IMG/VR virus record: IMGVR_UViG_3300035498_001143
Length of the DNA: 64,000 nt
DNA from: a virus
Lineage: Duplodnaviria > Heunggongvirae > Uroviricota > Caudoviricetes
Direction: 5' to 3' (one strand)
Position numbers and translations under genes: made by a program
Notes under the pieces: model-generated
What the model saw: the letters and a program-made list of their open reading frames with translations, nothing else
Database searches by the model: none
What the model was told of the DNA's origin: nothing
Part shown: positions 25,440 through 49,715 of the stretch, in pieces
Layout of the letters: every line of letters starts with the position of its first letter
Numbering within the stretch: the first letter of the stretch is position 1

Positions 25440-25599
25440 ATTTACTTTCCAATATATTAGTATTAATACGAACTATGAGAAATTTTATGTTGAGGGTACA
25501 GCGACATTTACTTTCCAATATATTAGTATTAATACCCTTTAATGATATATTGATTTGATTATCATTTGTATTTACTTTCCAATATATTAGTATTAATAC
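25440..25599 (-). CRISPR. mini CRISPR-like array A: 3 identical 30-nt repeats, spacers of 36 and 34 nt; transcribed leftward from the leader at 25600-26034
   Basis: Repeat ATTTACTTTCCAATATATTAGTATTAATAC at 25440-25469, 25506-25535 and 25570-25599. The minus-strand form GTATTAATACTAATATATTGGAAAGTAAAT ends in ...GTAAAT like clostridial type I-B repeats. The spacers are unique. Confidence 0.55.
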
Positions 25600-26034: not shown

Positions 26035-26100
26035 GTTTTTTAGTAATTTTATGGTTTAATTTGTTTATTATTTAAATAAAAAATATAAGGAGTAATTGAA

Positions 26101-27681: not shown

Positions 27682-28155
27682 ATGAGTAAATATAGTGGAA
27701 AATGTGATTTCTATGATATAATTGAAATTCACGGTATAGATAAAATATTAAATAGTAGGGTTTTTGTTGGCGATGAAGAAGTATTTTTAAAATCAGAAAA
27801 AGATTGTATTAAATATTATCCTTATGTTGTTTCTACTTCTCATACAGATAAGGACGGTGGTACATTTCATTTAACAGATAGGTCTTGGGTAGATATTGAA
27901 GAAGAAGGAATGTTGAAAATTTATTTAAATATATTTATTAGATACTTTAATAAATGCAAAAGAAATAATATAGAATATAAGATAGAAGATGCTGTTAAGC
28001 AAACATTAAGTAATGATGAAAAAGCCGTTTTAGAATTAGCTAATAGAGTAAAAGATAATGGTAAAACCGCTACTTATGAAGGCGTACATTTAAAATTGTA
28101 TGATTATTATAGGAATCTTTTAAATGATAAATTAAAGGAGGTTGATAATCTTTGA
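27682..28155 (+). CDS. hypothetical protein
   Basis: ORF with RBS. Confidence 0.4.
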   Translation: MSKYSGKCDFYDIIEIHGIDKILNSRVFVGDEEVFLKSEKDCIKYYPYVVSTSHTDKDGGTFHLTDRSWVDIEEEGMLKIYLNIFIRYFNKCKRNNIEYKIEDAVKQTLSNDEKAVLELANRVKDNGKTATYEGVHLKLYDYYRNLLNDKLKEVDNL

Positions 28156-29003
28156 GTGATTATATTAAATCTCCAATTAATTATATTGGTGGTAAATTTA
28201 AATTATTAAAACATATAATTCCTGAGTTTCCAAATGATATAAATACATTTGTAGATTTATTCGGTGGAGCTTTTAATGTTGGTATTAATGTAAATGCTAA
28301 TAAAGTTATATATAATGATATAATCAATTATTTATCTGAATTATTTATATATTGGAAAAGTACAGAGCTTAAAGAAATAAATAATTATATTGATGAAAAA
28401 ATAAACGAGTATGATTTATCTTCAACTAATTTAGATGGATTTCTTAATTTTAGAAAAAATTATAATACAGTAAAAGATATTAGAGATTTATTTATATTAC
28501 TATGTTATTCTTTTAACTATCAAATAAGATTTAATAATAAACAAGAGTATAATAGTAGCTTTGGTAAAAAGAAAAGTACAATGAATCCTAACATACGAAG
28601 AAATTTAAATGTTTTTGTTGATAGATTACATAGTGGTAATTATGAGTTTGTAAATAAAAACTTTGTAAATTTTGATTTTTCTATATTAAATAAAAATGAT
28701 TTTGTTTATTGTGATTGTCCTTATACAATTAGTACAGGCGTTTATCAAGATGGTAAAAGAGGCTTTAATGGTTGGTCTAAAGAAGATGATACTAAATTGT
28801 TTAATATTCTTGATGAATTAAATAATAGAAATATTAGATTTGCTTTAAGCAATGTTTTTGAGAATAAGGACTTGAAGAATGAAGAGCTGATTGAATGGGC
28901 TAATAAGTATAACGTAATACATATAAACACAACATATAATGGAAGTAATTATCAAAGAAAATCAACAAGTAAAACCGATGAGGTTTTAATAAAAAATTAC
29001 TAA
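28152..29003 (+). CDS. Dam-like (D12-class) N6-adenine DNA methyltransferase
   Basis: N-terminal YIGGKFKLL...FVDLFGGAF (SAM-binding) and DCPY catalytic motif (a DPPY variant). Confidence 0.7.
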   Translation: MSDYIKSPINYIGGKFKLLKHIIPEFPNDINTFVDLFGGAFNVGINVNANKVIYNDIINYLSELFIYWKSTELKEINNYIDEKINEYDLSSTNLDGFLNFRKNYNTVKDIRDLFILLCYSFNYQIRFNNKQEYNSSFGKKKSTMNPNIRRNLNVFVDRLHSGNYEFVNKNFVNFDFSILNKNDFVYCDCPYTISTGVYQDGKRGFNGWSKEDDTKLFNILDELNNRNIRFALSNVFENKDLKNEELIEWANKYNVIHINTTYNGSNYQRKSTSKTDEVLIKNY

Positions 29004-32117: not shown

Positions 32118-33215
32118 ATGATTAATTTAATAAATGGTGATTGTCTTGAAAAAATGAAAGATATACAAGATAAGTCAATAGATTTAATTCTGTGCGATTT
32201 GCCTTATGGTACTCAAAAAAGTAATGGTTGTAAATGGGATATAATTATTCCTTTTGACAAACTATGGGAGCAATATAATAGAATCATAAAAGATGATGGT
32301 GCTATTGTTTTATTCGGAAAAGAACCTTTTAGTTCTTTATTAAGAGCGAGTAATTTAAATATGTATAAATATGATTGGATATGGAGTAAAGATACCAAGA
32401 GTAATTTTATGCAGTGTAATTATCAACCATTAAATAATTTGGAATGTATATCTGTGTTTTCAAAGGCTTACGCAAGAGAAATAAAAGATAAAGTAAAAAT
32501 GAAATACAATCCTCAATTTTCAGAGGGAGATAGTTATAAACTCCCAAAAGAAAGTAGTACGACAGAAATATTTAGTTCTAATCATAAAAACGGTAAATAC
32601 ATACATAAAGATAGAGATACATCAAAAAGATACCCATATAATACATTATTCTTTAATTCTGTAAAAGGAAAAGAAAAAATACATCCTACACAAAAACCAA
32701 TTGATTTATTAGAGTATTTAATAAAAACATATACAGATGAAAATGATTTAGTATTAGATAACTGTATGGGAAGTGGAAGTACAGGTATTGCTTGTATTAA
32801 TACTAATAGAAATTTTATAGGAATAGAAAAAGATATTGATTTTTATATAAAGGCGAGTAATAGAATAGAAGACCATAAAAATAGCATTTTATTAACTCAA
32901 GCAGTAAATGTAACTATTGATTGTATTAACGAAGATTATGAAGAATATGATGAAAATTACAATGAAGAAAATATTCAAGATTTTGAAATAAATTGTTTTG
33001 AATTGCCTAAACGTGATATTGATGATATTGCAGGAAATGAAATACAATTAGGAAATAATTATTTTTTTCGAGAACCTGAACAATTAGATAAAGTAGAATT
33101 TATTTCGTTTAAAAAACCTGATGATGAATATTTAGAACCACTTAATTCTGAAAGATTTGAAAATATTTTTGTAAAAGAAAGGTTTTATGAAGAAAAACCT
33201 TTAGAAAGGAAATAA
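32118..33215 (+). CDS. N4/N6 DNA methyltransferase, beta class, with acidic C-terminal extension
   Basis: N-terminal DLILCDLPYGT (catalytic) and C-terminal HPTQKP...DNCMGSGSTGIAC (SAM binding), the circularly permuted beta order. Confidence 0.75.
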   Translation: MINLINGDCLEKMKDIQDKSIDLILCDLPYGTQKSNGCKWDIIIPFDKLWEQYNRIIKDDGAIVLFGKEPFSSLLRASNLNMYKYDWIWSKDTKSNFMQCNYQPLNNLECISVFSKAYAREIKDKVKMKYNPQFSEGDSYKLPKESSTTEIFSSNHKNGKYIHKDRDTSKRYPYNTLFFNSVKGKEKIHPTQKPIDLLEYLIKTYTDENDLVLDNCMGSGSTGIACINTNRNFIGIEKDIDFYIKASNRIEDHKNSILLTQAVNVTIDCINEDYEEYDENYNEENIQDFEINCFELPKRDIDDIAGNEIQLGNNYFFREPEQLDKVEFISFKKPDDEYLEPLNSERFENIFVKERFYEEKPLERK

Positions 33216-33233
33216 TTAGAAAGGAAACAAAGA

Positions 33234-33917
33234 ATGAAATTATATAATAAAGATTGTTTAGAAGTTTTAAATAGATTAGAAGATAATTCAATTGACTTAT
33301 TGATTACTGACCCACCATATCCTGTAACATCAAGAGGCTCTGCAGGTAATAGCGGTGGTATGATGCAGAAAGATGTAAATAAAAAAGGTAAGGTTTTTCA
33401 ATTTAATGATATTAAATGTGAAGATTATGCACCTGAATTTTTTAGAATATTAAAAGACGGTAGCCATTGTTATGTAATGACTAATCACGTTAATTTAATT
33501 AATATGCTTAATACTTTTACTAATTGTGGTTTTCATTTTATTAAATGCTTAATTTGGAATAAAGGCAATAAGATTATGGGTCAGTATTATATGTCACAAT
33601 TTGAATACATACTCTTTTTTAGAAAAGGCAAAGGCGTAAAAATAAATAATTGTGGTACATCTGATATTTTATCTATTCCTAATAAAAAGAAAAAAGATGA
33701 GAATGGAAAGAACTTGCACGATACAGAAAAACCAGTTGAGCTTATGGAAATATTAGTTGGTAATTCAAGTAAAGAAAATGATACAGTTATTGACCCATTT
33801 ATGGGGATTGGTGCAACAGGAGTTGCTTGCAAAAATTTAAATAGAGATTTTATAGGCGTTGAATTAGATGAACATTATTTTAATATTGCCAAAGATAGGA
33901 TAAATAAAGGGGAGTAA
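33234..33917 (+). CDS. N4/N6 DNA methyltransferase, beta class
   Basis: DLLITDPPY then HDTEKP...DPFMGIGATGVAC. Confidence 0.75.
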   Translation: MKLYNKDCLEVLNRLEDNSIDLLITDPPYPVTSRGSAGNSGGMMQKDVNKKGKVFQFNDIKCEDYAPEFFRILKDGSHCYVMTNHVNLINMLNTFTNCGFHFIKCLIWNKGNKIMGQYYMSQFEYILFFRKGKGVKINNCGTSDILSIPNKKKKDENGKNLHDTEKPVELMEILVGNSSKENDTVIDPFMGIGATGVACKNLNRDFIGVELDEHYFNIAKDRINKGE

Positions 33918-33918
33918 T

Positions 33919-35129
33919 ATGAAAAAAATTAAATTAACTGCAAATATTCTTTTTAGTGGTATTGGCTGTCAAGAATATGGATGGAGAAAGAGTAATTTAT
34001 TTGATATAGAAGTATTAAATACTTCTGATATATACAAAGAAGCTGTATTATCTTATGCTGCTATACATTGTGATATGACTAATGAAATGGTAGATAGTTA
34101 TGATTATCCAACAAAAGAAGAAATGATTGAACATTTAACTAAAATAAATTTAGGATATGATGCAGATAAAAATAAACCATTTAATTGGAATAAGGTAAAA
34201 GATAATGATTTAAAGAAATATTACCTTGCTTGTAAATTAACAAATAATTTAGGTGATATTTCAAAAATTGAAGATTTACCTTATGCTGATTTTTGGACTA
34301 TTTCTTTTCCTTGTCAATCAATTTCAATATGTGGAAAATTAAAAGGTTTTACAGAGGGTTCTAATACAAGAAGTAGTTTATTATGGGAAAATATAAGATT
34401 ATTAAAAATTGCTAAAGAAAAGAATAAAACACCTAAGTATCTTATGTTCGAAAACGTAAAAAATTTACTTAGTAAAAGGTTTGAAAATGATTTTAAAGAT
34501 TTAGTTGATATATTAGACGATTTAGGTTTTAATATTTATTATAACGTATTAAATTCTAAATGTTGTGGAGTACCACAAAATAGAGAAAGAGTTTTTGTTA
34601 TTTGTATTAGAAAAGATACTGATACTAATTTATTTACTTTTCCAAAACCATTTGATAATGGAATGAGATTAAAAGATATTTTGGAAGATGAAGTTGATGA
34701 AAAATATTACATAAGTGAAGCAGCACAGAAAAAATTAAAATTTATAACTACTAATAGTAAAAACGATACTTTCCAATTAAAACAAATTGCTCAAATGTAT
34801 GGTACAGATAAAGAACCTAATCCTCAGGCAGGTAGAGTTTATAGTGAAGATTATATTTGCCCTACTTTAGATACTTGTAGCGGGGGAATAGAATGCCAAA
34901 AGTGTATAGAGAACCAAGAGTAAGAAAACTTACACCAAGAGAATGCTTTGCATTACAAGGTTTTACTTTTGAAGATTGTAATAAAGCAATAGATATAGGT
35001 GTTGCTGATTCTCATTTATACAAACAAGCAGGTAATGGTATTACGACTAATTGTTGTGCATTGTTAGCAGAACATTTATATAAAGCTCAATATAATAACT
35101 TTTACATTTGTAGTGATGAAAAATATTAA
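33919..35129 (+). CDS. C5-cytosine DNA methyltransferase interrupted by a frameshift at a G5 run (34882-34886)
   Basis: Motif I FSGIGC, IV FPCQ, VI ENV in the frame ending at 34923. Motif IX RKLTPRECFALQGF and X GNG are in the frame opening at 34881. One extra G would fuse them. Confidence 0.6.
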
Positions 35130-35858: not shown

Positions 35859-36487
35859 GTGCTGATTTTAATAAAGCAGCAAGATTATTCTTGGTATATT
35901 GGGATAATGTTTTAGTTGCATTATGTTCTATGTTACCTAATCCAAGTGGTACAGTAAAACACGGTTTTAGATGCCATAGATTGGTTGTCTTACCTGATTA
36001 TCAAGGTTTAGGTTTTGGTACTAAAATAACAGAATATATTGCTGATATTTATTTAAAAGAGGGTAAAAGGTTTTATTTTAGAACAACTCATAAGAAATTA
36101 CTTAATCATATGGATAGTAGCGATTTATGGGTTGGTACAAGTCATAATAATAAACCACAAACTACTGATATTCAAGGTAGAGAATTAAAAACTAAGAAAA
36201 GAATTTGTGGTAGTTATGAATATGTAGGTAATGATTATATTTCTAAACCACACAAAGAAATTGTTATTGACGAAATAAATGATTTAAATAAATTAAAAAA
36301 TTATTTAATAAGTTTACAAAAACAATATTATGTAATTATTATTCACGGTAAGTCTGAATGTGATGATGAAATCGATATACTTTGTCAAAAATTAGCTATA
36401 AGAACAAAAACTTTATATATAAAGAAAAAAGATACATACACTAAGAAAAAAATTCCTAAGAATGTAGAAATTTATAAGGAGAATTGA
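35789..36487 (+). CDS. GNAT-like acetyltransferase domain in the -1 frame relative to the ABC ATPase; probably its C-terminal extension via frameshift
   Basis: GNAT motif A RLVVLPDYQGLGFGTKI. The -1 frame is open from just after the A7 run at 35780-35786, with no independent RBS. Confidence 0.4.
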   Translation: MTLQVYESTDKDIWRVFRKHHYLSADFNKAARLFLVYWDNVLVALCSMLPNPSGTVKHGFRCHRLVVLPDYQGLGFGTKITEYIADIYLKEGKRFYFRTTHKKLLNHMDSSDLWVGTSHNNKPQTTDIQGRELKTKKRICGSYEYVGNDYISKPHKEIVIDEINDLNKLKNYLISLQKQYYVIIIHGKSECDDEIDILCQKLAIRTKTLYIKKKDTYTKKKIPKNVEIYKEN

Positions 36488-37317
36488 TTATGTATGAACC
36501 TGTTATAAAATGGTCGGGTAGTAAAAGAAGTCAAGCAGAAGAAATACTAAAGTATTTTCCTAAAGAAATAGATACATATTATGAACCATTCTGCGGTGGA
36601 GCTTCTATGTTGAGAAGATTATTAGATGCAGATATAAAGGTAAATAAATATGTTTGTAGTGATTTAAATAAAGATTTAATAGATTTATTTAATTTAATAA
36701 AAACTCAACCATATCAAGTATCTGAACATTATAGAGAGTTATGGAATAAATTAAATATTGACGATGATAAGAAAAGAAAAAAGAATTTCTTTAATGAAAT
36801 AAGAGATAAATTAAATAAAGAACACAATCCATTAGATTTTATGTTTATTATGAGAACTACAACAAATGGTATGCCAAGATATAATGCAAAGGGTGAATTT
36901 AATAATTCTTTTCATATAACAAGAGATGGTATAAATCCTGATACATTAAAAAATATTATTTATGAGTGGAGTAATTTATTAAATGATAATAATGTTGAAT
37001 TTATAAATTGTTCTTATGAAAAAGTAAAACCTAATAAAAATGATTTTCTTTATTTAGACCCACCATATTATAATACTAAAGGTATGTATTATGGAAGAAT
37101 TGATTATGATGAATTTTTTGATTATTTAAGAAATATACCTTGTAATTATATATTAAGTTTTGATGGTATAAGCGGAGATAAAAACAATACAGCAAATATA
37201 CCTAACGATATATATACTAAACACGAATATATAAAAAGCGGTAATTCTTCATTTAAAAGAATTATTGGTAATTCAAAAGATAGTATTGTTTATGAGAGTA
37301 TTTACATAAAGGAATGA
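36484..37317 (+). CDS. Dam-like (D12-class) N6-adenine DNA methyltransferase
   Basis: WSGSKRS...YYEPFCGGAS and DPPY. Confidence 0.75.
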   Translation: MIMYEPVIKWSGSKRSQAEEILKYFPKEIDTYYEPFCGGASMLRRLLDADIKVNKYVCSDLNKDLIDLFNLIKTQPYQVSEHYRELWNKLNIDDDKKRKKNFFNEIRDKLNKEHNPLDFMFIMRTTTNGMPRYNAKGEFNNSFHITRDGINPDTLKNIIYEWSNLLNDNNVEFINCSYEKVKPNKNDFLYLDPPYYNTKGMYYGRIDYDEFFDYLRNIPCNYILSFDGISGDKNNTANIPNDIYTKHEYIKSGNSSFKRIIGNSKDSIVYESIYIKE

Positions 37318-37536: not shown

Positions 37537-37565
37537 TTGACGAATAATAAAAATTGTGGTATAAT
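37537..37565 (+). promoter_or_regulatory. sigma70 promoter TTGACG-17-TGnTATAAT
   Basis: Near consensus. Confidence 0.55.
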
Positions 37566-37598
37566 ATAAACAAAAAATATTTAAAAGGAGGAGAAAAG

Positions 37599-38156
37599 TT
37601 GAAAGATTTTACATTTGATTATTGGAGAGATAGTCTTGATAGTAATAAATTGTTTCTTGATGAGGGATATTGCATTTCAAATAATTGGGAAGATTATACT
37701 TATATTCCTTATTCTTTGAGAGAATTATCAGGTGAAGTTTTTAATGAAAAATTATATAATGCAAAAAAGAATAATTCTAAGAAAACTTCTAAGAATAAAA
37801 TAATAGATAACGACTTAAAGAAAAATCTTATTACAAAATTAGTATGTACTAATGAAAAAAGAGTAAGAAATATTATCGGTGGATTAACAATCGGACAAGA
37901 TGTTAATTTTGAATATACTAAAAAAGGAGTAAGTTGTTTTGTTGATAAATTAGAGTACCATAAATCAAAAAGAAATATTATTGTAGATAAAAAACATTTC
38001 ATAGGTCATATTCCTTTTTCAAAAACTTCTTTAATAAAAAATAACAAAAGTAATATTAGAAGTATAGAGATTTTTGATATAAAAGAAAAGTATAAAAATC
38101 AAAAAGCAATAATAATTAAAATAGAATTTTTAGAAGGAGTAAAAATAGATGGCTAA
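37599..38156 (+). CDS. hypothetical basic protein
   Basis: TTG after RBS aaaggagg. Confidence 0.4.
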   Translation: MKDFTFDYWRDSLDSNKLFLDEGYCISNNWEDYTYIPYSLRELSGEVFNEKLYNAKKNNSKKTSKNKIIDNDLKKNLITKLVCTNEKRVRNIIGGLTIGQDVNFEYTKKGVSCFVDKLEYHKSKRNIIVDKKHFIGHIPFSKTSLIKNNKSNIRSIEIFDIKEKYKNQKAIIIKIEFLEGVKIDG

Positions 38157-38504
38157 GAAGAAAGAAAAAAAAGTCGATATTGATAAGATGTTAGCCAATG
38201 AGGTAGTTTATGACGTACCTATAGCAAAAACAATAAGAAACTCAACATTGAATTATGCTATGTCAGTTATTACAGATAGAGCCTTACCTGATGTAAGAGA
38301 TGGTTGTAAACCAATACAAAGAAAAGTCTTGTATGCAACTTATGTAAAAAAAATATTTCCTAATTCAAAGTTTACAAAAAATGCTGAAATCGTAGGTGAA
38401 GTAATAGGTAAATACAGTCCTCACGGTGATACGAGTACTTATGGAGCTTTAGTAAATTTGGCTCAACCTTGGAACACAAAATATCCATTAATTGATTTTC
38501 ACGG
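38149..38504 (+). CDS. gyrA: DNA gyrase/topo II subunit A, exon 1 (through the HPHGD-region up to LIDFHG)
   Basis: ...GCKPIQRKVLYA...KYSPHGDTSTYGALVNLAQPW..., the GyrA N-terminal motifs. The frame stops 3 codons after the junction. Confidence 0.8.
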
Positions 38505-38890
38505 TAGACAATGATTTTTAATAAAAGATATAATTATATCTTGAAAAATTTGACTTAGTTAAAAATTATGCCGTTCTAAGTGAAACTGTCAGGTAGCTTA
38601 GAACTATGAGTGCGAAATGAAGCTGGGAGGGTTTAGTCATCCTAATCAGAAATTTTGAAGGCTATATTTAAAAGTATAGTCAAAGGCAACGCATAGAGAA
38701 TGAACCTTAAATGCGAGTTTAAGAATATAATTTCTCCAAGAGGTCGCACTAACGGACAGTACAATAACAGAGCTTATTCGTGTTAAAAAGTTATGCTATA
38801 CTGAATATGAATTGACATATTGATGAAAATGAGAGAAATCTCCAGAGATATAGATAAAAAACTATATGATAAAAACAATTAGAACTCAGG
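38505..38890 (+). ncRNA. intervening sequence in gyrA, probably a self-splicing intron (boundary +/- 1 nt)
   Basis: 386 nt with stops in all frames. Contains group-I-like pieces (AATCAGAAA, TATAGTC, GGCTATA) but in a non-canonical order. It ends in G, and excision restores ...LIDFHG|NFDGDQYAAYRYTEGRL in frame. Confidence 0.45.
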
Positions 38891-40925
38891 AAATTTTGAT
38901 GGAGACCAATATGCTGCTTATAGATATACAGAAGGCAGATTACATAAAAATGCAATGGAATTATTAAGTGGTCTTGAAGAAAAATGTGTTCCATTTCACC
39001 CCAATTTTAGTGAAACAACAGAAGAACCAGAAGTATTACCTGGTTTATTGCCTAATTTGCTTGTAAACGGCTCATACGGCATTGCAGTTGGCTATACAAC
39101 CAATTTCCCCTCACACAACCTTTCAGAGGTTATAGACGGTATTATAAAGGTTATACAGAACCCTGATGCTACATTAAAAGATATAATGAAATATATAAAA
39201 GCACCTGATTTTCCTTTAGGTAGTCTTTTGGTAGATGATGGTAATATTGAAAAATTATATACAGAAGGTAAAGCAAGTTTAACATTCTTATCTAAGTATA
39301 CTATTGAGGAAAATTCTGAAAATAAGAATCCTCAAATAATTTTTCACGAAATACCACCTACTGTTAATAAACCTAAACTTGTTGAAAAAATATACGAAGT
39401 CTGTATAGATAAAAAACAAGTACCAAGGGTTGTTGATATAAGGGATGAATCAAATGGTGAAGCAGGTATTAGAATTGTAGTTGAATTACATAAAACAGCA
39501 ATAGTAGATATTGTTTTATCTGAATTGTTTAAAAGAACAGATTTAAAGAAATCTAATTCATATATTTTAAGATGTATTGATGATAAAATTCCAAAGGTTT
39601 TATCTTTAAAAGAAATAATTGAAAAGTACATTGAATTTCATAAGGAAGTATATATTAGTAAATATACTAATATGTTAGCCAAAGTAAATAAAAAACTTCA
39701 TATTCAAGAGGGCTATAAAAAGATTTTAACTAATATTGATAAAGCAATTGATATTATTAGAAAATCTGATGATGATAAGGTTGCTAAAGCTAAATTAAAA
39801 GACGAATTTGATTTAACAGATGAGCAGGCAGAAGTAATTCTTGATATGAAATTAAGAAATATTACTAAGTTAGCTTCTAAAGATATTGATACGACTATTC
39901 AAGAGTATAAAGATAAAATTGCTACTTATACAGATATTATTTCAAATGATGATTCTTTAAATAATGTTTTAATAAACGATTTGAAAGATTTGAAAAAACG
40001 TCTTGGCGATAGTAGAAAAACTGAAATAGTCCATGATGTTGCTACTCAAATAGTTCAGAGTGTTGAAAAAGATGTAATGTTAGTCTTAACTAATAAGAAT
40101 AATATCAAACATTATGAAGTAGATACTTATGAAGAAATGATAGCGAAAGGCTATAAGGAGAAATCTGAAATATTCTTACAGTCTGTTAAAATAAATACTA
40201 ATGATAAAGTATTATTGATTTTAAATAATTGTAAATATATTTGTTTAGAATTTAATGATTTATTAGGTAATATAAGTTCATTAATAGATAAGCAGGCAAT
40301 TAAAACTATTATTCCTTTAACAGAAAACAATATGAAGAAAGTTATCTTTGTTATGACGAAAAAAGGGTTAATTAAAAAATGCTTTGTTGAAAAGATTAAA
40401 TATAAGAAGAAATTAGCTCCTCTTATGGAAATTGATGAAGAAGATAATGTAATAAAGGTTGATTTAATAGATAATAATGAAAATAATGTTATTACTGTTG
40501 CTTCACAAGATGGTTTAATACATAGATTCTTTGTTAATTCATTTAAAGAAACATCAGCAGGCGGTAAAGGATTAAGTAGTATGTCATTACAAGATAGTAA
40601 TATAGTTGATTTTATTATTTCTGATAAAAGTAATGATGAGAATAATCAATTAATTATTTATGCTATAAATGAAAATAATTATATGATTAAGAAAATACCT
40701 TTAAAGGAATTTTTAGTCAAGGGTAGAATAGCAAAAGGTGTTAAATCTATAAACTTTACTACAAAAAGTCCTGGCGAGATATATAAAATATTTATTACTG
40801 ATAAAGATTTTTCAATTATAAACAACAAGGGCATATTACAAGAAATAAAATTAGATAGTATAAAAGAAAGCACTAAAGCAACCAAGGGTGAAAATATAGA
40901 TTACGATGTTTTATATATAAAATAA
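38891..40925 (+). CDS. gyrA: gyrA exon 2 (active-site Tyr region, tower, C-terminal domain)
   Basis: NFDGD...RYTE..L...PNLLVNGSYGIAVGYTTNFPSHNL matches the GyrA/ParC breakage-reunion domain. The frame is open from 38892. Confidence 0.8.
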
Positions 40926-40931
40926 TTATTA

Positions 40932-40967
40932 AAGGCTCACAAATTAAGATTTTGTGAGTCTTTTTTT
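40932..40967 (+). terminator. rho-independent terminator
   Basis: aaaggctcacaaa...tttgtgagtcttt plus T7. Confidence 0.6.
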
Positions 40968-41004
40968 ATATATAAAATATAAAAAGAAAGGACTGTATAT
41001 AAAA

Positions 41005-41505
41005 ATGATTATAAATAGAGTATGGTCAATGCCTAACAGTAACACTTTTTCAATAAAGCCTATCAAAGAAATTATAAATAAATACGCTTTTGGTAAAATT
41101 ATAGACCCTTTTGCTAATGATAGTAAAATTGCAACTATTACTAATGATTTAGATATATCTCACGATACTGATTATCATTTAGATGCTACTGATTTTTTAA
41201 AGATGTTTGAAGACAATTCTATTGATACTGTTTTATATGACCCACCTTATTCTCCACGTCAAGTTTCTGAATGTTATAAGAAGTTAGGACAAACAGTAAA
41301 TATGCAAACAACACAAGCTTCTTACTGGTCACTTCAAAAAGAGCAAATAGGAAGAATTGTAAAACAAAATGGTATAGTGATAACTTGTTGTTGGAACTCA
41401 GGCGGTATTGGTAAAAAATATGGTTTTGAAATAGAAGAAATATTGTTAGTACCACATGGCGGTTGGCATAATGATACTATTGTAACAGTAGAAAGAAAAA
41501 AGTAG
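41005..41505 (+). CDS. small DPPY-motif DNA (adenine) methyltransferase
   Basis: LYDPPYSPRQ catalytic motif in a 166-aa protein; the ORF-track start is moved to the ATG with RBS after the terminator. Confidence 0.55.
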   Translation: MIINRVWSMPNSNTFSIKPIKEIINKYAFGKIIDPFANDSKIATITNDLDISHDTDYHLDATDFLKMFEDNSIDTVLYDPPYSPRQVSECYKKLGQTVNMQTTQASYWSLQKEQIGRIVKQNGIVITCCWNSGGIGKKYGFEIEEILLVPHGGWHNDTIVTVERKK

Positions 41506-41514
41506 GTGTAATAT

Positions 41515-42099
41515 GTGGCTAAGATAGAAAATGATAAGTATTATACACCTGATGATTTAGCAAAATACTGTGTAGAAAAAGCAAATGAAATAATAGGTGT
41601 TGATAATATAATTAGTTATATAGAACCATCAGCAGGAGCAGGGGCGTTTATTAAATATTTTAATAAAGATTATTTAGCAATAGATATTCTTCCTGAACAC
41701 GAAAGAGTCATTGAACAAGATTTTTTGACTTTAAATCTTTCTTACAAGAAAGGTAGAATGATAATAGGCAATCCACCGTATGGTAGAAATATGTCTTTAG
41801 CTCAAAAATTCTATAAGAAATCAATAGAGCTTGCAGATTATATAGCTTTTATATTGCCTATTTCACAATTAAATAATACTAATTCTTTATATGAATTTGA
41901 TTTAATATATAGTGAGGACTTGGGAATAAGAACATATTCAAATATTGATTTACATTGTTGCTTTAATATTTACAAAAGACCTGAAAACGGGTTAAATAAA
42001 AAGGAAAGTATTAAATTAAAAGATATAACTATTTATAGACAAGATAAAAAAGGTTATGATAATTTAGATTTTGATATAAGAATGTGCTACTGGGGGTAA
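41515..42099 (+). CDS. N6-adenine DNA methyltransferase, gamma-like (NPPY)
   Basis: YYTP...EPSAGAGAF (SAM) then IIGNPPYGR (catalytic). Confidence 0.7.
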   Translation: MAKIENDKYYTPDDLAKYCVEKANEIIGVDNIISYIEPSAGAGAFIKYFNKDYLAIDILPEHERVIEQDFLTLNLSYKKGRMIIGNPPYGRNMSLAQKFYKKSIELADYIAFILPISQLNNTNSLYEFDLIYSEDLGIRTYSNIDLHCCFNIYKRPENGLNKKESIKLKDITIYRQDKKGYDNLDFDIRMCYWG

Positions 42100-42400: not shown

Positions 42401-42548
42401 ATTTACTTTCCAATATTTCAATATTAATACCTTAAAAACAACTTAAAAAAACAGATTACCTCGAATTTACTTTTCAATATAGTAGCATTAATACTTTGGT
42501 GATTACACAAACAGTACATTTACTTTCCAACATATTAGTATCAATACC
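42401..42548 (-). CRISPR. mini CRISPR-like array B: 3 diverged copies of the same 30-31-nt repeat, spacers of 34 and 23 nt
   Basis: Repeats at 42401-42431, 42466-42495 and 42519-42548 match array A at 24-27 of 30 positions. It is followed by the same conserved leader (42549-42990). Confidence 0.4.
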
Positions 42549-42978
42549 CGTTTAGTATGCAGTAGTACATTTTATTAGTATTTCAAATACTAAATCTGTC
42601 GAACTCATTGAAAAAGTTAATTTCGAATATTATTTTTTATCCATTATTTACTTTATTCTCACAAGAACATAAGTAAATAAAGTGTTTTCAAAATTCTGTC
42701 TATCTCTTAGCAATTTTACACTACTATACATCGACAGAATTTAAAAACTAAAAAAATAAAAAGTATTTATACTATATATTGAATTTGGTGAGTGGTTGGC
42801 TTCTTCCGTCAAAGCGGTGCAAGTCTTAAAATTCTACAGCAGTGTTGAACTGTATGTGATATGAATTACCCTCACCCTACGGACGGCAAATCGCCCGAAG
42901 TCACCAATTAAAGTGCTTATAAAAATAGTTCTTAAAAACTTACAATATTATAATAACATATTATTTTCTGTTTGTCAA
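42549..42978 (-). promoter_or_regulatory. second copy of the conserved CRISPR leader with distal minus-strand promoter (TTGACA 42978-42973, TATTAT 42955-42950)
   Basis: About 90 percent identity to 25600-26034, including the inverted repeat and the GC-rich segment. Confidence 0.5.
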
Positions 42979-43024
42979 GTATTTTTTATTAGAAAAATAA
43001 ATTTTAAGAGATGAGTGTGATTTA

Positions 43025-43879
43025 ATGAATAATTTAATTCCACCTTGTTCTTATCAAGGCGGCAAACAAAGACTTGCAAAACAAATTGTAGATATTATAT
43101 ATAAAGAAAATAATATTGATGAAAATACAAAATTTTTTGATATTTGTTGTGGTAGCGGAGCTGTTAGTTTAGAGTTAATAAATAATAACTTTAATTCTAA
43201 TAACATTACAATGATTGATATAAATATTTTTGGACTTTTCTATGAATATGTTTCTAAAAATAAATTTGATTTAAATATTTTTAAAGAAGAAATAGATAAA
43301 TTACCTGATAAAGAATACATACAACTTTATTTAAAACAATTAAGTGATTTACCTATTGATGAAGAAAAATTAGTATATCAATATTTATTGTTGCAGGCAG
43401 GTAGTTTTGGAAGTAAACAAATTTATATAAAAGATAATAAATGGAAGAATAACACGTTTAGAAATTATTGGCAACCTACTAAGAGTAGTAATAGAAAAAG
43501 TCCTGTCAATCCCATGATGCCGATGCCTGATACGTTATTTGAAAGAGTAGAAAATATTGTAAATAAATTAAGTGGTAAGATTGTTGCATACAATGATGAT
43601 ATTTTTAATATATTAAATATTTTTTCCAATTTAGATAATAATGTTATTATTTACATTGACCCACCGTACTCAAACACGACAAAATATAAAGATAGTTTTG
43701 ATGTTTATGAATTGATTGATAAGTTAAAAAACATAAATGATTTTACTATTTATATATCAGAAGGCGTTGAATTGAACAATGCTAAAAACACATATTTACT
43801 TTCAAGAGGTAGAACTAAAGGTAATATTAGTGGTAATGTAACTAAAAAGCCTGTTGAAGAATGGTTAAATAAATTCTGA
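43025..43879 (+). CDS. Dam-like (D12-class) N6-adenine DNA methyltransferase
   Basis: YQGGKQRLAK...CCGSGAV and IYIDPPY. Confidence 0.7.
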   Translation: MNNLIPPCSYQGGKQRLAKQIVDIIYKENNIDENTKFFDICCGSGAVSLELINNNFNSNNITMIDINIFGLFYEYVSKNKFDLNIFKEEIDKLPDKEYIQLYLKQLSDLPIDEEKLVYQYLLLQAGSFGSKQIYIKDNKWKNNTFRNYWQPTKSSNRKSPVNPMMPMPDTLFERVENIVNKLSGKIVAYNDDIFNILNIFSNLDNNVIIYIDPPYSNTTKYKDSFDVYELIDKLKNINDFTIYISEGVELNNAKNTYLLSRGRTKGNISGNVTKKPVEEWLNKF

Positions 43880-43906: not shown

Positions 43907-44239
43907 ATGAAATACAAACCAACAATTAAAGAATACTTAACTTGGATAAAAGAAGATATAAAAAGATTATATTATTTAATACGTTATTTTACAAAGGCAT
44001 TATTTAATGTAGATAAAAATATTTTATTAAGTAAAGATTTTAAAGTGGATAGTTATATTATTACTTTTCATTCTGACGATTATAGCGGAGCTTGTTATGA
44101 TGAAAGAAGATTTGATAATTTTAAAGACGCTTATGAACTTTACGAATTAAGTAAAAATCAAAAATGTAGAGAAGATTTTGTAAGATTGCATATTTCGATT
44201 GAATATATTGGAAATATAGAAATAGCAAGATATAAATAA
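43907..44239 (+). CDS. hypothetical protein
   Basis: ORF. Confidence 0.35.
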   Translation: MKYKPTIKEYLTWIKEDIKRLYYLIRYFTKALFNVDKNILLSKDFKVDSYIITFHSDDYSGACYDERRFDNFKDAYELYELSKNQKCREDFVRLHISIEYIGNIEIARYK

Positions 44240-44251
44240 GAGGTTTAATAT

Positions 44252-44641
44252 ATGAGAGAAATTATTTTTTTAATAAGTATTTTATTTTTTCACGTAATAG
44301 AAGATTTTTATTTTCAAGGGTGGTTAGCTTCTGCCAAACAAAAAACTTGGTGGATAAAAAACAATCCTAATGAAATGTATAAATATGATTATGTTGTAAT
44401 ATTACTTGTACATTCGTTTTCATGGACTGTTATGATACATATACCAATTTTAATTTATATGTATTTATTTAATATTTCAGTAGATGTTTCTGATTTTTCG
44501 TTTATGTTTATATTAACGATAATTATACATTGTCTTACTGATAATGCAAAAGCTAATTTATATAAAATAAATCTTATTCAAGACCAATTAATTCATTTAT
44601 TGCAAATTATTGTATTATGGGTTACTTACATAAATTTATAA
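44252..44641 (+). CDS. small membrane protein
   Basis: Three hydrophobic helices. Confidence 0.35.
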   Translation: MREIIFLISILFFHVIEDFYFQGWLASAKQKTWWIKNNPNEMYKYDYVVILLVHSFSWTVMIHIPILIYMYLFNISVDVSDFSFMFILTIIIHCLTDNAKANLYKINLIQDQLIHLLQIIVLWVTYINL

Positions 44642-44659
44642 ATTAAAGAAAGGAAATGA

Positions 44660-45097
44660 ATGATGAAAAAAATAAAATTGTGGATTTATAATTTTATTGT
44701 TAATGCTATCGCTGCTGATGACGATTTAAATTTAACAGGTAAGCAAAGAAGTCAATTATTTAGTCTAACTAATAAATTTAAAGTTAGAAATTGTAAAAAG
44801 AATTTAATTTATATAAGTCATCCTTATCAAGATAAAAAAGAAAATATTGAGGATATAGAAAAAATCATCAATAACTTGGTGAAGAAATATGATGAATATA
44901 CATTTGTTTCTCCTGTTCATTGTTTTGGATTTATGTATACAACTGTTTCTTATGATAGAGGGTTAGATTTTTGTCTTGATTTATTAGATTGCTGTGAACA
45001 AATGTGGGTGTTTGGTACTTATACAAATAGTATAGGTTGTACTAAAGAGATTGAATATTGTATTACAAATAATATTAAATATAAAATTTTTAGTTGA
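44660..45097 (+). CDS. hypothetical protein (nucleoside 2-deoxyribosyltransferase-like fold is a weak guess)
   Basis: YISHPY...VFGTY...G pattern only. Confidence 0.3.
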   Translation: MMKKIKLWIYNFIVNAIAADDDLNLTGKQRSQLFSLTNKFKVRNCKKNLIYISHPYQDKKENIEDIEKIINNLVKKYDEYTFVSPVHCFGFMYTTVSYDRGLDFCLDLLDCCEQMWVFGTYTNSIGCTKEIEYCITNNIKYKIFS

Positions 45098-45099
45098 TG

Positions 45100-45140
45100 A
45101 AAAAAAAGAGGGTAGAAAAACTACTCTCTTTTTTTAATTA
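45100..45140 (+). terminator. rho-independent terminator
   Basis: aagagggtagaaaaactactctctt plus T7. Confidence 0.55.
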
Positions 45141-45439
45141 TTATAACATTAAAGTTATTTGCTTAATAATATGTATACTATCTATCTTATTTTGCGTTTA
45201 TTTGCCTTTTTAATGGTTTGTAACTTTTTAGGTGAACGAATTATCGTCAGTCATCTTAAAATTCAAAATAAGGGCATTTCTGAGCGTTTTAGAGCCATAT
45301 ATTAAATCATTCAATAGTCCGTCATTCATTTTTTGTTATATAAGTCTTAATTTTTATAATTTTGAACTAATGAAATTGAGAGTGAATCTTAGAGTTAATT
45401 TTTATCCCTATATAAAAATTCATCAAATAGAGATTTACT

Positions 45440-45907
45440 TAGGTGTTTAATTATTATTAATTATTTTAATATATTATTTAAAAGCTTAATATATTTCTTA
45501 GTATATCTTAAAGCTTTAGTATATAATTAATTATTAATATATATAATATAAAAAGAATAATCATGCATGGATGTATATTAATTATTTTATATATTAATTT
45601 AAATATTAATTTAAATATATATAGATATACTAAGATGAATCTATATAGTATAATTAATATATATATACATGATTATTAATAATTAATATATAGTAGTAGT
45701 AGGGGACACCCAAAAATGTTGATAAGTGCCTCAAATGAGTACTATGTACTCGAATAAGTATGTTAATAACGTGTTGATAAGTATGTTAGTTATAAACATT
45801 GTCAACATCAATTAACATAGTTTGAAAAATAAAACGATTTCTTGTGTTGATAAAAAAGGACTTATTAACACCTATCAACATACAATGTTGATAACTATGT
45901 TGATAAT
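45440..45907. repeat. origin-like region: ~260-bp extreme AT tract followed by seven DnaA-box-like 9-mers (TGTTGATAA / TTATCAACA)
   Basis: Direct copies at 45717, 45772, 45845, 45886 and 45898; inverted copies at 45799 and 45872. Each differs from TGTGGATAA by one base. 45440-45700 is almost pure A+T with many short palindromes. Confidence 0.5.
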
Positions 45908-45932
45908 GTGAATAACTTTCTAAGGGAAAAAA

Positions 45933-46693
45933 TGATGAATGAGTATGAATTGTATAATGATGATTGTTTAGAACAAATGAAAAATATTGATGATAAATCT
46001 ATTGATTTGATATTAACTGATTTGCCATACGGTACTACTAATTGTAAGTGGGATTCAATTATACCATTAGATTTATTATGGGAACAATATAATAGAATTA
46101 TTAAAGATAATGGAGCGATTCTTTTGTTTGCACAAACACCATTTGATAAGATATTGGGTTGTTCTAATTTAAAAATGCTGAGATATGAATGGATATGGGA
46201 AAAGACACAAGCAACAGGACATTTCAATGCTAAGAAAATGCCTATGAAAGCCCACGAAAACATATTAGTATTTTATAAAAAATTGCCTACATACAATCCT
46301 CAAAAAATCCAAGGGTGTAAGCCTGCACACGGAGCTGTAAGAAAAGCAGAAGTTGGTAACAAAACACAAATATATGGAAAAGTAAAAGAAGATTCTGTTT
46401 ATGAAGGTGGTAATACAGATAGATACCCTCGTTCTGTAATAATATTTGCTTCCGATAAACAAACTTGTTGTTTACACCCTACACAAAAGCCTGTTGCTTT
46501 ATGTGAATATTTAATTAAAACATATTCTAATGAAAATGATATAGTCTTGGATAGCTGTATGGGGAGTGGAACTACAGGAATAGCTTGTTTAAATACTAAT
46601 AGAAAATTCATAGGAATTGAAAAAGAAAAACAATATTTTGATATAGCTAAAAAAAGAATTGATGATTTTTTAAAGGAGAAAAACATTGAGTAA
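45933..46693 (+). CDS. N4/N6 DNA methyltransferase, beta class (paralog 1)
   Basis: DLILTDLPYGTT then HPTQKPVALCEYLI...DSCMGSGTTGIAC. Confidence 0.75.
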
Positions 46694-47438
46694 TTATGAA
46701 ATTTACAATGATGATTGTTTAGAAAAAATGAAAGATATTTCTGATGAAAGTATAGATATGATTCTTTGTGATTTGCCTTATGGAACAACAGCTTGTAAAT
46801 GGGATATAATTATCCCTTTCAATAAGTTATGGGAACAGTATGAAAGAATAATAACGAATACAGGTGTAATTTGTTTATTCGGACAAGAACCATTTTCAAG
46901 TATGTGTAGAATGAGTAATTTAAATTTATATAGATATGATTATGTATGGCAAAAACAAAAACCAAGTAATTTTCAATTGATGAATTATCAATGTGGTAGA
47001 GTTCACGAAAATATAATGATTTTTAGTAAAGCAAAGGCTTGTTATACTAAAAATGGTGCTAAAATAAATTATTTTCCAATAATGGAAAAAAGAGAAAAAG
47101 TAAGAAAAGCTAATGCTAAAATTTATAATAATGGTAAAGCAGACTTATTACATAATTACAAAACAGAAGATAATTTCAAAACCTATGAAGAAAAACACCC
47201 TATTTCTATTTTAAAATTTAACGCAGTAGAGCATAGAGTTCATCCAACTCAAAAGCCTATTGATTTATTAGAATATCTAATTAAAACATTTACTAAAGAG
47301 AATATGACTGTATTAGATAATTGTATGGGTAGTGGTAGTACGGGTGTTGCTTGTTTAAATATAAATAGGAATTTCATAGGGATAGAGAAAGAGAAGAAAT
47401 ATTTTGATATCGCAAAGGACAGATTAAAAGATGTTTGA
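46686..47438 (+). CDS. N4/N6 DNA methyltransferase, beta class (paralog 2)
   Basis: DMILCDLPYGTT then HPTQKPIDLLEYLI...DNCMGSGSTGVAC. Confidence 0.75.
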   Translation: MSNYEIYNDDCLEKMKDISDESIDMILCDLPYGTTACKWDIIIPFNKLWEQYERIITNTGVICLFGQEPFSSMCRMSNLNLYRYDYVWQKQKPSNFQLMNYQCGRVHENIMIFSKAKACYTKNGAKINYFPIMEKREKVRKANAKIYNNGKADLLHNYKTEDNFKTYEEKHPISILKFNAVEHRVHPTQKPIDLLEYLIKTFTKENMTVLDNCMGSGSTGVACLNINRNFIGIEKEKKYFDIAKDRLKDV

Positions 47439-48183
47439 AAATTGTAATTATGAATTATTTCACGGTGATTGTTTAGAGGTAATGAATAATTTAATAAATA
47501 ATAATATAAAAGTTGATTTAATTTTAACAGATTTACCTTATGAAACAACAAAATGTAAATGGGACATTTTAATTCCTTTTGAAGATTTATGGGATAGATA
47601 TAATAAATTAACAGAAGATAATACACCTATTGTTTTATTTGGGCAAGAACCTTTTAGCTCTTTATTAAGAACAAGTAATTTAGAAAATTACAAGTATGAT
47701 ATTTATTGGGAAAAAGAAAGATTAACTAATATAAATCAAGTTAAAAAAAGAGTAGGAAAAACTGTTGAAACTATTTCTATCTTTTATAAAAAACAATGTA
47801 TTTACAATCCTCAAATGATTAAATATGATGGTAAACCGAGAAGTAATAAAGTAAAGAATGGTAAATTAGGAAAATTAACTGATGATAATGAAAAGAAAGT
47901 ATTTGAATATAAAGATACAGGGTGGAGATATCCTACACAAGTTTGGAAATATCAAAGAGATTGTCTAACTTCTAATTTACATCCTACTCAGAAACCAATT
48001 AAGTTATTAGAAGATTTAATAAAAACTTTCTCTAACGAAAATGCAATCGTATTAGATTCTTGTATGGGTTCAGGTAGCACAGGAGTTGCCTGTTTAAATA
48101 CTAATAGAAAATTTATAGGCATAGAGAAAAATGATGAATATTTTGATATAGCAAAGAAAAGAATTGAGGAGCTTGTTTTATGA
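47431..48183 (+). CDS. N4/N6 DNA methyltransferase, beta class (paralog 3)
   Basis: DLILTDLPYETT then HPTQKPIKLLEDLI...DSCMGSGSTGVAC. Confidence 0.75.
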   Translation: MFENCNYELFHGDCLEVMNNLINNNIKVDLILTDLPYETTKCKWDILIPFEDLWDRYNKLTEDNTPIVLFGQEPFSSLLRTSNLENYKYDIYWEKERLTNINQVKKRVGKTVETISIFYKKQCIYNPQMIKYDGKPRSNKVKNGKLGKLTDDNEKKVFEYKDTGWRYPTQVWKYQRDCLTSNLHPTQKPIKLLEDLIKTFSNENAIVLDSCMGSGSTGVACLNTNRKFIGIEKNDEYFDIAKKRIEELVL

Positions 48184-48929
48184 AATATTTTGGTAGTAAA
48201 AGTAGAATAGCAAAACAAATAATACCCATAATTCAGGAGTACATTGATAAGGGTAATTTTGATACATATATTGAGCCTTTTTGTGGCGGTGCAAATGTAA
48301 TAGATAAAATAGATTGTAAAAATAAAATTGGTTATGATTTAAACAAATATTTAATTGCATTATTAAATTATGTAAAAGACGGTGGAGAATTATATTCATC
48401 AGTAGATAAAGATTTATATGATAAAGCAAGAACAGCTTTTTATAATGATGACAATTCCACATTTACTGATTGGCAAATTGGTAATATTGGTTTTCTTGCT
48501 TCTTATAATGGTCGTTTTTATGATGGTGGTTATGCAAAGCCCGTATATGAAAAAACTAAAAAGGGCACAAGATATCGTGATTATTACAAAGAGGGTAAAG
48601 ATAATTTACTTAATCAAGCCCCTGATTTGAAAGATGTTAAATTTATAAATAAAGATTATAAAGATATAATTCTTCCTGATGATTGTTTAGTATATTGTGA
48701 CCCACCGTATAAGAATACTAAAAAGTTTTACATAGATAAGAATTTTGATTATGATGCTTTTTGGAATAAAATAAGAGAATGGAGTAAAGACCATATTGTT
48801 TTAGTTAGTGAACAAGAAGCACCTAATGATTTTGTTTCTATATGGGAAAAAGATGTAAATAGAAGTATTAATGTTAATAACAAATTTAGTGCAACTGAAA
48901 ATATGTTCATACATAAAAGTTTAACGTGA
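48180..48929 (+). CDS. Dam-like (D12-class) N6-adenine DNA methyltransferase
   Basis: YFGSKSRIAK...YIEPFCGGANV and VYCDPPY. Confidence 0.75.
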   Translation: MKYFGSKSRIAKQIIPIIQEYIDKGNFDTYIEPFCGGANVIDKIDCKNKIGYDLNKYLIALLNYVKDGGELYSSVDKDLYDKARTAFYNDDNSTFTDWQIGNIGFLASYNGRFYDGGYAKPVYEKTKKGTRYRDYYKEGKDNLLNQAPDLKDVKFINKDYKDIILPDDCLVYCDPPYKNTKKFYIDKNFDYDAFWNKIREWSKDHIVLVSEQEAPNDFVSIWEKDVNRSINVNNKFSATENMFIHKSLT

Positions 48930-48938
48930 GGAAAAATA

Positions 48939-49715
48939 ATGGAAATAAATAAAGTTTATAATATGGATTGTTTAGAGTTATTAAAAACAATAGATAAAAA
49001 TTCAATAGATTTAATTCTTATAGACCCACCATATTTAATTAGTCGTGATAGTCATTTTACCCAAGGTGCTAAAAATGATGAAATGAAAAGTAAATATGGA
49101 AAACATAAAATAGATTTTGGTGATTGGGATAAAGGAGAATTAAATCTTCAAAACATATTATCTGAAAGTTATAGAATATTAAAAGACAATGGTACTTTAA
49201 TAATGTTTTATGATTTTTGGAAAATGCAAGAAGTAAAAGAAACTGCTGAACAAATAAAATTTAAGCAACCAAGGTTAGGTATATTTAATAAAACTAATCC
49301 TGTACCTGTAAATGCTAAAATTAATTATTTATCTAATGCGAAAGAATTTTTTGTTACTTTTGTAAAGAAGTCAAAACCAACTTTTAATTCTTATTACGAT
49401 AATGCAGAATATTATTTATCTGAAAATTCAGAAGAAGCAGATACATATTATTTTCCAATAGTACACGGTAAAGAAAGAACTAAACACCCTACTCAAAAAC
49501 CATTATCTTTAATAAAAGATTTAATAAAGAAACATAGTAATGAAGATGATATAGTATTAGATTTCTTTGCAGGTAGTGGTACAACAGGAGTAGCTGCTTC
49601 TGAATTAAATAGAAATTATATATTATGTGAAATAAATAAAGAATATTATGAAATAATCAAAGAAAGATTATCTAAAGAAGAATTATCCAAAAAACCTTCT
49701 AAAGATATAAATTAA
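48939..49715 (+). CDS. N4/N6 DNA methyltransferase, beta class
   Basis: DLILIDPPY then HPTQKPLSLIKDLI...DFFAGSGTTGVAA. Confidence 0.75.
   Translation: MEINKVYNMDCLELLKTIDKNSIDLILIDPPYLISRDSHFTQGAKNDEMKSKYGKHKIDFGDWDKGELNLQNILSESYRILKDNGTLIMFYDFWKMQEVKETAEQIKFKQPRLGIFNKTNPVPVNAKINYLSNAKEFFVTFVKKSKPTFNSYYDNAEYYLSENSEEADTYYFPIVHGKERTKHPTQKPLSLIKDLIKKHSNEDDIVLDFFAGSGTTGVAASELNRNYILCEINKEYYEIIKERLSKEELSKKPSKDIN

Follow-up and report, generated by a model that had tools for sequence, protein, structure and literature searches.

To our knowledge, how replication starts in huge phages is largely unknown, and skew is usually the only basis on which their origins are guessed. The window analysed here, that is the whole stretch of 64,000 nucleotides, holds a non-coding region in which an extremely A+T-rich tract is followed by a cluster of DnaA-box-like 9-mers. 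A sequence-only reading had described this region (45440–45907) as origin-like, which raises the question of whether a phage genome of this kind could open its DNA as a bacterial chromosome does, and with whose initiator.

Genomic context

The window has a GC content of 25.8%, and practically every gene between 1 and 57 kb lies on the + strand. Its gene set is that of a huge phage, with ClpP, ClpX, TnpB, an HU-like protein (2263–2550), RNase H, a 5′-3′ exonuclease and a sigma-like protein. Near relatives, with ≈92% DNA and 96% protein identity, were found on three viral contigs of IMG/VR (180, 224 and 379 kb), and the best match among deposited phages was topoisomerase II gp254 of Bacillus megaphage G (497 kb), with 36% identity over the full length and E = 3e-115. 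Based on this topoisomerase match, on the huge-phage gene content and on the large viral-contig relatives, the element is probably a G-like megaphage of a low-GC host. Megablast of positions 44000–47500 against deposited phages gave no match, and blastn of the module against deposited phages, phage G included, retrieved short chance-level matches only and no homologue. Neither tRNA genes nor Rfam families were found by tRNA and Rfam scans of the whole window, and dnaA, dnaN and ribosomal genes are absent from the 64 kb.

At least 13 orphan DNA methyltransferase genes, an unusually high number, are gathered in 22 kb of the window (28152–29003, 32118–34923, 36484–37317, 40954–42099, 43025–43879 and 45932–49715); they belong to the N6/N4 and D12 classes, apart from a single C5 enzyme, and the scanned window ORFs showed no restriction partner for them. 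The type II topoisomerase is split into separated pieces, namely a GyrB-like ATPase (20390–21715), a Toprim plus GyrB_C piece (22469–23026), a short GyrA-like N-terminal piece (37554–38514) and a 656-aa GyrA-like part (38955–40925), with ≈16 kb of methyltransferase and other genes between the B-like and the A-like parts. A ≈600-bp non-coding element is present twice, at 42401–42991 and 25440–26045, with 82% identity between the copies. Each copy contains three CATTTACTTTCCAATATATTAGTATTAATAC at ≈63-bp spacing and a ≈125-nt GC-richer, hairpin-rich segment (ggtgagtgg...ccctcaccctacggacggcaaatcgcccgaagtcacc), lies just upstream of a gene (at 26101 and 43025, the latter a D12 methyltransferase) and had no match in Rfam; either a non-coding RNA or a cassette with a regulatory role is conceivable.

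The candidate origin module is housed in an intergenic region of 834 bp (Table 1, where copy A is the module of the window and copy B a paralogue described below). On the left, the terminator expected from the first reading was recovered by the terminator scan (45101–45135), while what had been called a methyltransferase triplet on the right consists of five consecutive genes (45932–49715). The first of them has its ATG at 45932, behind a ribosome-binding site that reads AAGGGA, and starts 17 bp past the last box; a protein of this operon has an exact copy on other contigs. Sigma-70 promoters predicted in the region were no more numerous than in shuffled sequences, and none was predicted between the boxes and the first methyltransferase gene.

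Table 1. Positions of the module components and of the flanking features in the window.
Feature	Positions	Strand	Basis or remark
DUF7768 gene, upstream of the module	44660–45097		Pfam
Intrinsic terminator of the DUF7768 gene	45101–45135	+	Terminator scan; left limit of the 834-bp intergenic region
Variable non-coding stretch, outside the conserved module	45136–45432		Nearly unalignable even with the ≈92%-identical relatives
A+T-rich tract, proposed DNA unwinding element	45433–45690		≈10% GC; separated from the boxes by the trios
Four DnaA-trios, TAG x4	45691–45702	+	3′-GAT-5′ reading away from the box
14-bp spacer GGGACACCCAAAAA with GC cluster, trios to proximal box	45703–45716		Sequence
Proximal DnaA-box-like 9-mer TTATCAACA	45717–45725	−	Faces the trios; invariant in all copies
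Tandem pair TTATTAACA (45761–45769) and TTATCAACA (45772–45780)	45761–45780	−	Both invariant in A and B
Abutting pair in opposite orientation, TTATAAACA (45790–45798) and TTGTCAACA (45799–45807)	45790–45807	+	Sequence
Box TTATCAACA	45845–45853	−	TTATTCACA (canonical CACA type) in paralogue B
Pair TTATTAACA (45862–45870) and CTATCAACA (45872–45880)	45862–45880	+	Sequence and copy comparison
Three tandem boxes, TTATCAACA (45886–45894), TTATCAACA (45898–45906) and TTATTCACA (45907–45915; fits TTWTNCACA)	45886–45915	−	Sequence
Five-gene DNA methyltransferase operon, a neighbour and not part of the module	45932–49715	+	Pfam N6_N4_Mtase, MethyltransfD12

The box array and the A+T-rich tract

On the + strand, the 9-mer TGTTGATAA occurs in five exact copies starting at 45717, 45772, 45845, 45886 and 45898, in agreement with the five direct copies originally counted. 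Read on the other strand, the motif is TTATCAACA and departs by a single mismatch from the DnaA box TTATCCACA, as had been stated; all exact boxes are of this type and none is TTATCCACA, a general consensus that may differ from the preference of the host DnaA. Two inverted copies had also been reported, and both sites are present (TTGTCAACA at 45799 and CTATCAACA at 45872), each with one mismatch and thus not exact. Further members of the array are TGTTAATAA (45761), TTATAAACA (45790), TTATTAACA (45862) and TGTGAATAA (45907–45915), the latter fitting the relaxed consensus TTWTNCACA; since this last box occupies 45907–45915, the end of the element has to be moved from 45907 to 45915. As a whole, 11 DnaA-box-like 9-mers in both orientations (ten within one mismatch, plus TGTGAATAA) are packed into 199 bp, whereas the mean over the window is 0.375 per 250 bp. 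This density falls within the published definition of a box cluster, i.e., at least three boxes with a mean spacing below 100 bp (PMC7561715). Over the whole window, TGTTGATAA is found eight times against 2.2 expected, and none of 100 shuffles reached eight copies.

On the left of the array, the stretch 45433–45692 is the GC minimum over all 260-bp stretches of the window, with 10.4% GC, where the median is 25% and the 0.1st percentile 13%. The description of ≈260 bp as nearly pure A+T is therefore correct as to the extreme low GC and slightly overstated as to purity, ≈27–29 G/C being left. The box cluster together with this tract is far beyond chance. The many short palindromes described in the tract proved to be chiefly an effect of composition (z of DNA folding, −2.1 in the window and −0.35 in the paralogous copy), and cruciform or palindrome potential, which is weak and not kept in paralogue B, was rejected as a component of the module.

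DnaA-trios and the basal unwinding system

In bacteria, the basal unwinding system (BUS) is made up of a DnaA box, up to 16 bp of spacer (13 bp being the commonest), at least three DnaA-trios (3′-NAN-5′, with GAT preferred) and an A+T-rich region beyond them, and has been searched for as a box with no more than two mismatches to TTATCCACA, 0–16 bp from the trios (PMC8287927). The C. difficile trio sequence, 5′-CACCTACTACTATTACTACTATGA-3′, has a GC cluster before it and the unwinding element after it (PMC7561715). In B. subtilis incC, reversal of the trio-proximal box inactivates the origin, while the distal boxes tolerate either orientation and many distances (PMC6669920).

Between the tract and the array, the + strand of the window (45691–45725) reads four times TAG, then GGGACACCC AAAAA and then TGTTGATAA; on the − strand, starting from the box, this corresponds to TTATCAACA, the spacer TTTTTGGGTGTCCC, CTA four times and then the A+T tract. 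Three or more consecutive TAG or CTA triplets occur only here (45691–45702) in the 64-kb window; neither these trios nor the GC cluster had been noted in the first reading. All the parts of the bacterial arrangement are recognisable. The box, with its one mismatch, lies 14 bp from the first trio; the trios are four perfect GAT trios, of the same form as in C. difficile; a GC cluster of the kind reported in C. difficile (PMC7561715) stands between box and trios; and the A+T-rich tract extends on the far side of the trios. The proximal box is correctly oriented and the distal boxes are found in both orientations, matching what is required in B. subtilis. A single box adjoins the trios. A tandem box pair in this position is common in bacterial origins.

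The spacer length of 14 bp is kept in the relatives and in paralogue B despite changes of its sequence; as GC cluster, the window has GGGACACCC, the relatives have GGGATACCCC and paralogue B has GGGAAGTCG. Trios number four in the relatives and three in paralogue B, and the 150 bp past the trios have 9–13% GC in every copy of the module.

The variant box at bacterial origins

Since the five exact boxes share the same deviation from TTATCCACA, the identity of TTATCAACA as a DnaA box was tested and not assumed, by a scan for three TGTTGATAA copies at short gaps in which each bacterial species was represented by one genome. At least 120 bacterial loci from many phyla carry three or more copies, an array that amounts to 27 specified bases and is not expected by chance. 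A dnaA-like ORF adjoins the array in at least 19 loci; among the loci listed, the directly adjacent ORF bears both the DnaA signature and Walker A in 15 and Walker A only in 4 more. All ten ORFs tested were true DnaA (PF00308 and PF08299), including three of the four with Walker A only, and the estimated chance of a random locus lying no more than 8 kb from dnaA is well under 1%. In several dnaA-adjacent origins the ratio of TTATCAACA to TTATCCACA was 9:0, 7:0 or 5:0. On these sequence comparisons, TTATCAACA is a DnaA box at real chromosomal origins of many phyla, and the dominant one in some of them. It is a widely used natural DnaA box, and origin-prediction tools scoring only against TTATCCACA will under-call the oriCs in which it dominates.

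Among the same listed loci, eight showed a box, a GC cluster and (CTA)≥3 in the orientation seen in the window, whose proximal box thus agrees with 8/8 bacterial box-trio modules; the other three combinations of box and trio orientation were never found among them. The box-trio modules of loci L159, L177, L184 and L186 lie immediately downstream of dnaA, where the Firmicute oriC2 is likewise located. In metagenome contigs, the exact BUS pattern gave only two matches, a chance coding match and a bacterial oriC (L435), which is a dnaA-adjacent origin with TTATCAACA, a 14-nt spacer and CTA x4 at the same spacing as in the window.

The motif is also found among boxes on phage DNA. Among the DnaA boxes of T5-like phages that depart from the consensus, TTATCAACA and TTATTAACA are the most frequent (bioRxiv 10.1101/866236), and in unrelated phage contigs we found TGTTGATAA interleaved with TTATCCACA, TGTGAATAA and TTATGCACA. 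Two viral contigs of ≈50 kb (L016, 1020–1215; L017, 6440–6640) contain seven to nine TGTTGATAA copies mixed with TTATCCACA, TGTGGATAA, TGTGAATAA and TTATGCACA; these arrays, which have no DnaA-trios, separate the minor-head and the scaffold genes and are closely followed by a −10-like TGTATAAT and a hairpin. A two-box pattern, also tried as a search of the viral contigs, was discarded as too loose because most of its matches were single and probably due to chance; L016, L017 and L071 still showed the motif among canonical boxes.

Iteron origins and parC/parS sites also have, as is generally known, repeated short motifs next to an A+T-rich tract, so that the 9-mers might resemble DnaA boxes by chance and in fact belong to a plasmid or phage origin of the iteron type, to a partition site (centromere) or to a set of repressor operators. 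We regard this as very unlikely. The repeats of the module are 9-mers in both orientations with irregular spacing, and phased ≈17–22-bp direct repeats with an adjacent rep gene, as in iteron origins, were not found in it. No rep or par gene stands beside either copy (DUF7768 and methyltransferases for A, TnpB for B). Moreover, the same 9-mer is used alongside canonical TTATCCACA, TTATGCACA and TTATTCACA in unrelated phages and in dnaA-adjacent origins, and trios with a GC cluster are specific to DnaA-type origins.

A diverged second copy of the module

A scan of the viral contigs with the pattern TTATCAACA-N(3–16)-CTACTACTA returned the known relatives and a second, diverged copy of the module, paralogue B, which is carried by the related 379-kb contig and by a 151-kb contig from another sample. 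On the 379-kb contig (IMGVR_UViG_3300043080_000590), copy B is internal, at ≈58.8 kb, and copy A is at ≈335.7 kb in the same orientation, at a distance of 277 kb; on a circular genome, the opposite path would measure 102 kb. Copy B comes after a TnpB gene and has no methyltransferase operon downstream. Genes for TnpB (IS605 OrfB / Cas12f-like) were seen at 8608–9759 in the window and at 1927–3297 in contig L311, here just upstream of copy B.

The alignment of A and B is confined to the interval from part of the A+T tract through the last box, with 78% identity; the flanks are unrelated, and similarity breaks off at the trios, on the side of the A+T tract, and immediately past the last box. Copy B keeps each of the 11 box positions, and differences affect 10 of 99 box columns vs. 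29 of 114 non-box columns (Fisher p = 0.004). The changes within boxes all stay in the TGTKRATAA family, including swaps of AACA and CACA types (TGTTGATAA vs. the canonical-type TGTGAATAA), and the pair at 45790/45799 is TTATTAACA and TTATCAACA in the relatives and in B, i.e., changed toward the motif. In the A+T tract of B, composition is kept and sequence is not, 43% of the columns being different. Such a pattern is what would be expected of a cis-acting protein-binding and unwinding element, and two diverged copies with box-biased conservation point to selection on the module. Within the otherwise unalignable A+T tracts, AATCATGCATG is conserved between A and B (45560–45575 in the window; ≈6360–6385 in L311); since CATG and ATGCAT sites lie within it, this motif could be a methylation or protein-binding site inside the unwinding element.

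An operator specific to the methyltransferase operon is disfavoured by the occurrence of paralogue B without that operon, and was set aside as a candidate. The same comparison bears on the idea that the module is left over, without function, from an oriC fragment captured from a host, or that the contig is actually cellular DNA. Host DNA may occur among IMG/VR contigs, and the architecture is indistinguishable from a bacterial oriC core; yet both versions appear highly improbable to us given the selection acting on two diverged copies, the lack of dnaA, dnaN, tRNA and ribosomal genes in 64 kb, the megaphage-like genes (the orphan methyltransferases, at least 13, the split topoisomerase II nearest to phage G gp254, ClpXP and TnpB) and the relatives, which are viral contigs of 180–379 kb.

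Skew, initiator genes and alternative functions

A GC-skew inflection, suggested as a check for an origin, was not found within the window, the skew being ≈+0.25 on both sides of the site; third-codon-position skew did not differ either between the left and the right (0.28 vs. 0.26, p = 0.94, within the window). The genes around the site all run in one direction, with no divergence point there. Because phage skew largely tracks transcription, the missing switch weakens the origin reading and does not refute it. No dnaA, dnaN or replisome-loading gene is adjacent to the module, and no window ORF contains a DnaA domain. With neither a skew switch across the site nor a dnaA or dnaN neighbour in the window, the locations typical of a chromosomal oriC, we classed the module as a BUS-type origin on a phage and not as a chromosomal oriC.

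When the viral collection was scanned for the DnaA profile, with two strict peptide patterns, eight loci were retrieved, none of them on the contigs of the three relatives. As dnaA was found neither in the window nor on these contigs, host DnaA is the most likely operator of the module. An origin run by an initiator that the phage encodes outside the window, either a DnaA paralogue or another protein with DnaA-like specificity, would be in line with the single deviation from TTATCCACA shared by the five exact boxes, which suggests a defined specificity, and with the 64 kb read being part of a genome whose length is 379 kb or more. It would also agree with the large share of replication proteins that huge phages supply themselves, those of the window being topoisomerase II, RNase H, a flap endonuclease and HU. 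We nevertheless judge a phage initiator unlikely: ordinary cellular DnaA uses TTATCAACA at many oriCs, so that no special specificity is needed, AACA- and CACA-type boxes interchange within the module, no DnaA domain was found in the window, and 0 of the 8 DnaA-profile loci are on the three related contigs.

The array might also bind DnaA for purposes other than initiation, either as a sink titrating host DnaA, with host replication shut down or reprogrammed, or, for the methyltransferase operon, as an operator or a roadblock under DnaA control. Indeed, the boxes reach as far as the ribosome-binding site of this operon's first gene and, as no sigma-70-like promoter is predicted between boxes and gene, transcription must cross the array. 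The skew switch is absent at the site, and box arrays devoid of trios exist in phages in settings other than replication, examples being the iss region of T5 and the arrays located among the head genes of L016 and L017. On the contrary, a sink or an operator needs neither oriented trios, nor a GC spacer of conserved length, nor an extreme A+T tract, and paralogue B keeps trios, spacer and A+T tract without the methyltransferase operon. A function of this sort is accordingly rather improbable.

Proposed function of the module

The oriC-like layout first proposed, a DnaA-box cluster next to an unwinding element, is supported along three independent lines, by the presence of TTATCAACA at dnaA origins, by the trios and the GC cluster, and by paralogue B. 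As judged from sequence, positions 45433–45915 are probably an oriC-like origin of the megaphage-like genome, run by the DnaA of the host. Since a DnaA-trio module is present, DnaA itself would be the unwinder.

We infer binding of DnaA, supplied by the host, followed by unwinding and firing, in the following way. ATP-DnaA would bind, via domain IV, the ≈11 double-stranded boxes at 45717–45915, i.e., TTATCAACA and its relatives TTATTAACA and TTATTCACA. A DnaA filament would nucleate at the proximal box (45717–45725), cross the 14-bp spacer with its GC cluster to reach the four trios and engage the 3′-GAT-5′ trios on the + strand (45691–45702). By stretching this strand, the filament would open the adjoining 260-bp tract of 10% GC, and the replicative helicase would then be loaded on the opened DNA. 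The distal boxes, in either orientation, would raise the local DnaA concentration and may work by looping.

If so, the module is a concrete and testable cis-element on a megaphage and predicts dependence on the host initiator, which bears on host range, on competition for DnaA with the host chromosome and on vectors built from such phages. We suggest, with less confidence than for the origin itself, that megaphages of this lineage might replicate like small chromosomes, with two or more complete box/trio modules, no initiator of their own and host DnaA taken over, and that BUS modules are perhaps a fairly common, so far unrecognised class of phage origin.

Comparison with known systems

The scan of the viral contigs gave 182 pattern matches, 33 of which are non-coding with at least three boxes; five of these 33 belong to this lineage, the window itself included. 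About 28 unrelated viral contigs thus contain non-coding modules of box, GC cluster and CTA trios with 3–10 boxes, and no DnaA ORF was found near them. Among these are L377 (7858–7892), L353, L367, L417, L364, L375, L394 and L430; the L377 module adjoins terminase and P22-type portal genes. Given this number of contigs, BUS-type phage origins may be commoner than recognised.

In the iss region of T5-like phages, eight boxes in pairs 3 bp apart are located within the inverted repeats IRC/IRD of the terminal repeat, on first-step-transfer DNA, where they are mixed with consensus boxes; the authors argue that they are not origins (bioRxiv 10.1101/866236). The array described here shares with them the TTATCAACA/TTATTAACA variants and a 3-bp gap, between the boxes at 45886 and 45898. 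Some of its boxes are paired (gaps of 0–3 bp), with no inverted-repeat frame of the IRC/IRD type around them, and, unlike the T5 boxes, for which none is reported, it is joined to trios and an unwinding tract.

Host DnaA is recruited via boxes beside an A+T-rich region also by the extrachromosomal replicons P1 oriR, pSC101, F and RK2. These require their own Rep on phased iterons, and DnaA is a helper. Unlike them, the module has no iterons and no rep gene.

The BUS architecture itself is textbook and of a kind already known, being described in B. subtilis incC, in C. difficile oriC2 and in ≈85% of predicted bacterial origins (Richardson 2016/2019; Pelliciari 2021, PMC8287927; PMC7561715). A BUS on a megaphage, in two diverged copies and with no adjacent initiator gene, is undescribed in the searchable literature with the exception of predictions for Bacillus megaphage G, where Ori-Finder 2022 indicated two "OriC" regions with DnaA boxes, spacer, DnaA-trio and A+T-rich region (PMC12484599). 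Phage G is likewise a megaphage and, by topoisomerase II, the closest cultured relative. Its predicted OriCs differ from the present module in being default software output, with 52–58% A+T and without comparative support.

With the bacterial BUS, the module has in common the order of boxes, GC cluster, at least three trios (3′-GAT-5′) and A+T-rich region, the proximal box directed toward the trios, a spacer within 0–16 bp and distal boxes in both orientations. It differs from the commoner bacterial form, with a tandem pair and 13 bp, in its single proximal box and 14-bp spacer, and from bacterial BUS in general in being carried by a megaphage-like genome, with no adjoining dnaA or dnaN and no skew switch, in occurring as two diverged copies per genome, and in having TTATCAACA and not TTATCCACA as its exact boxes.
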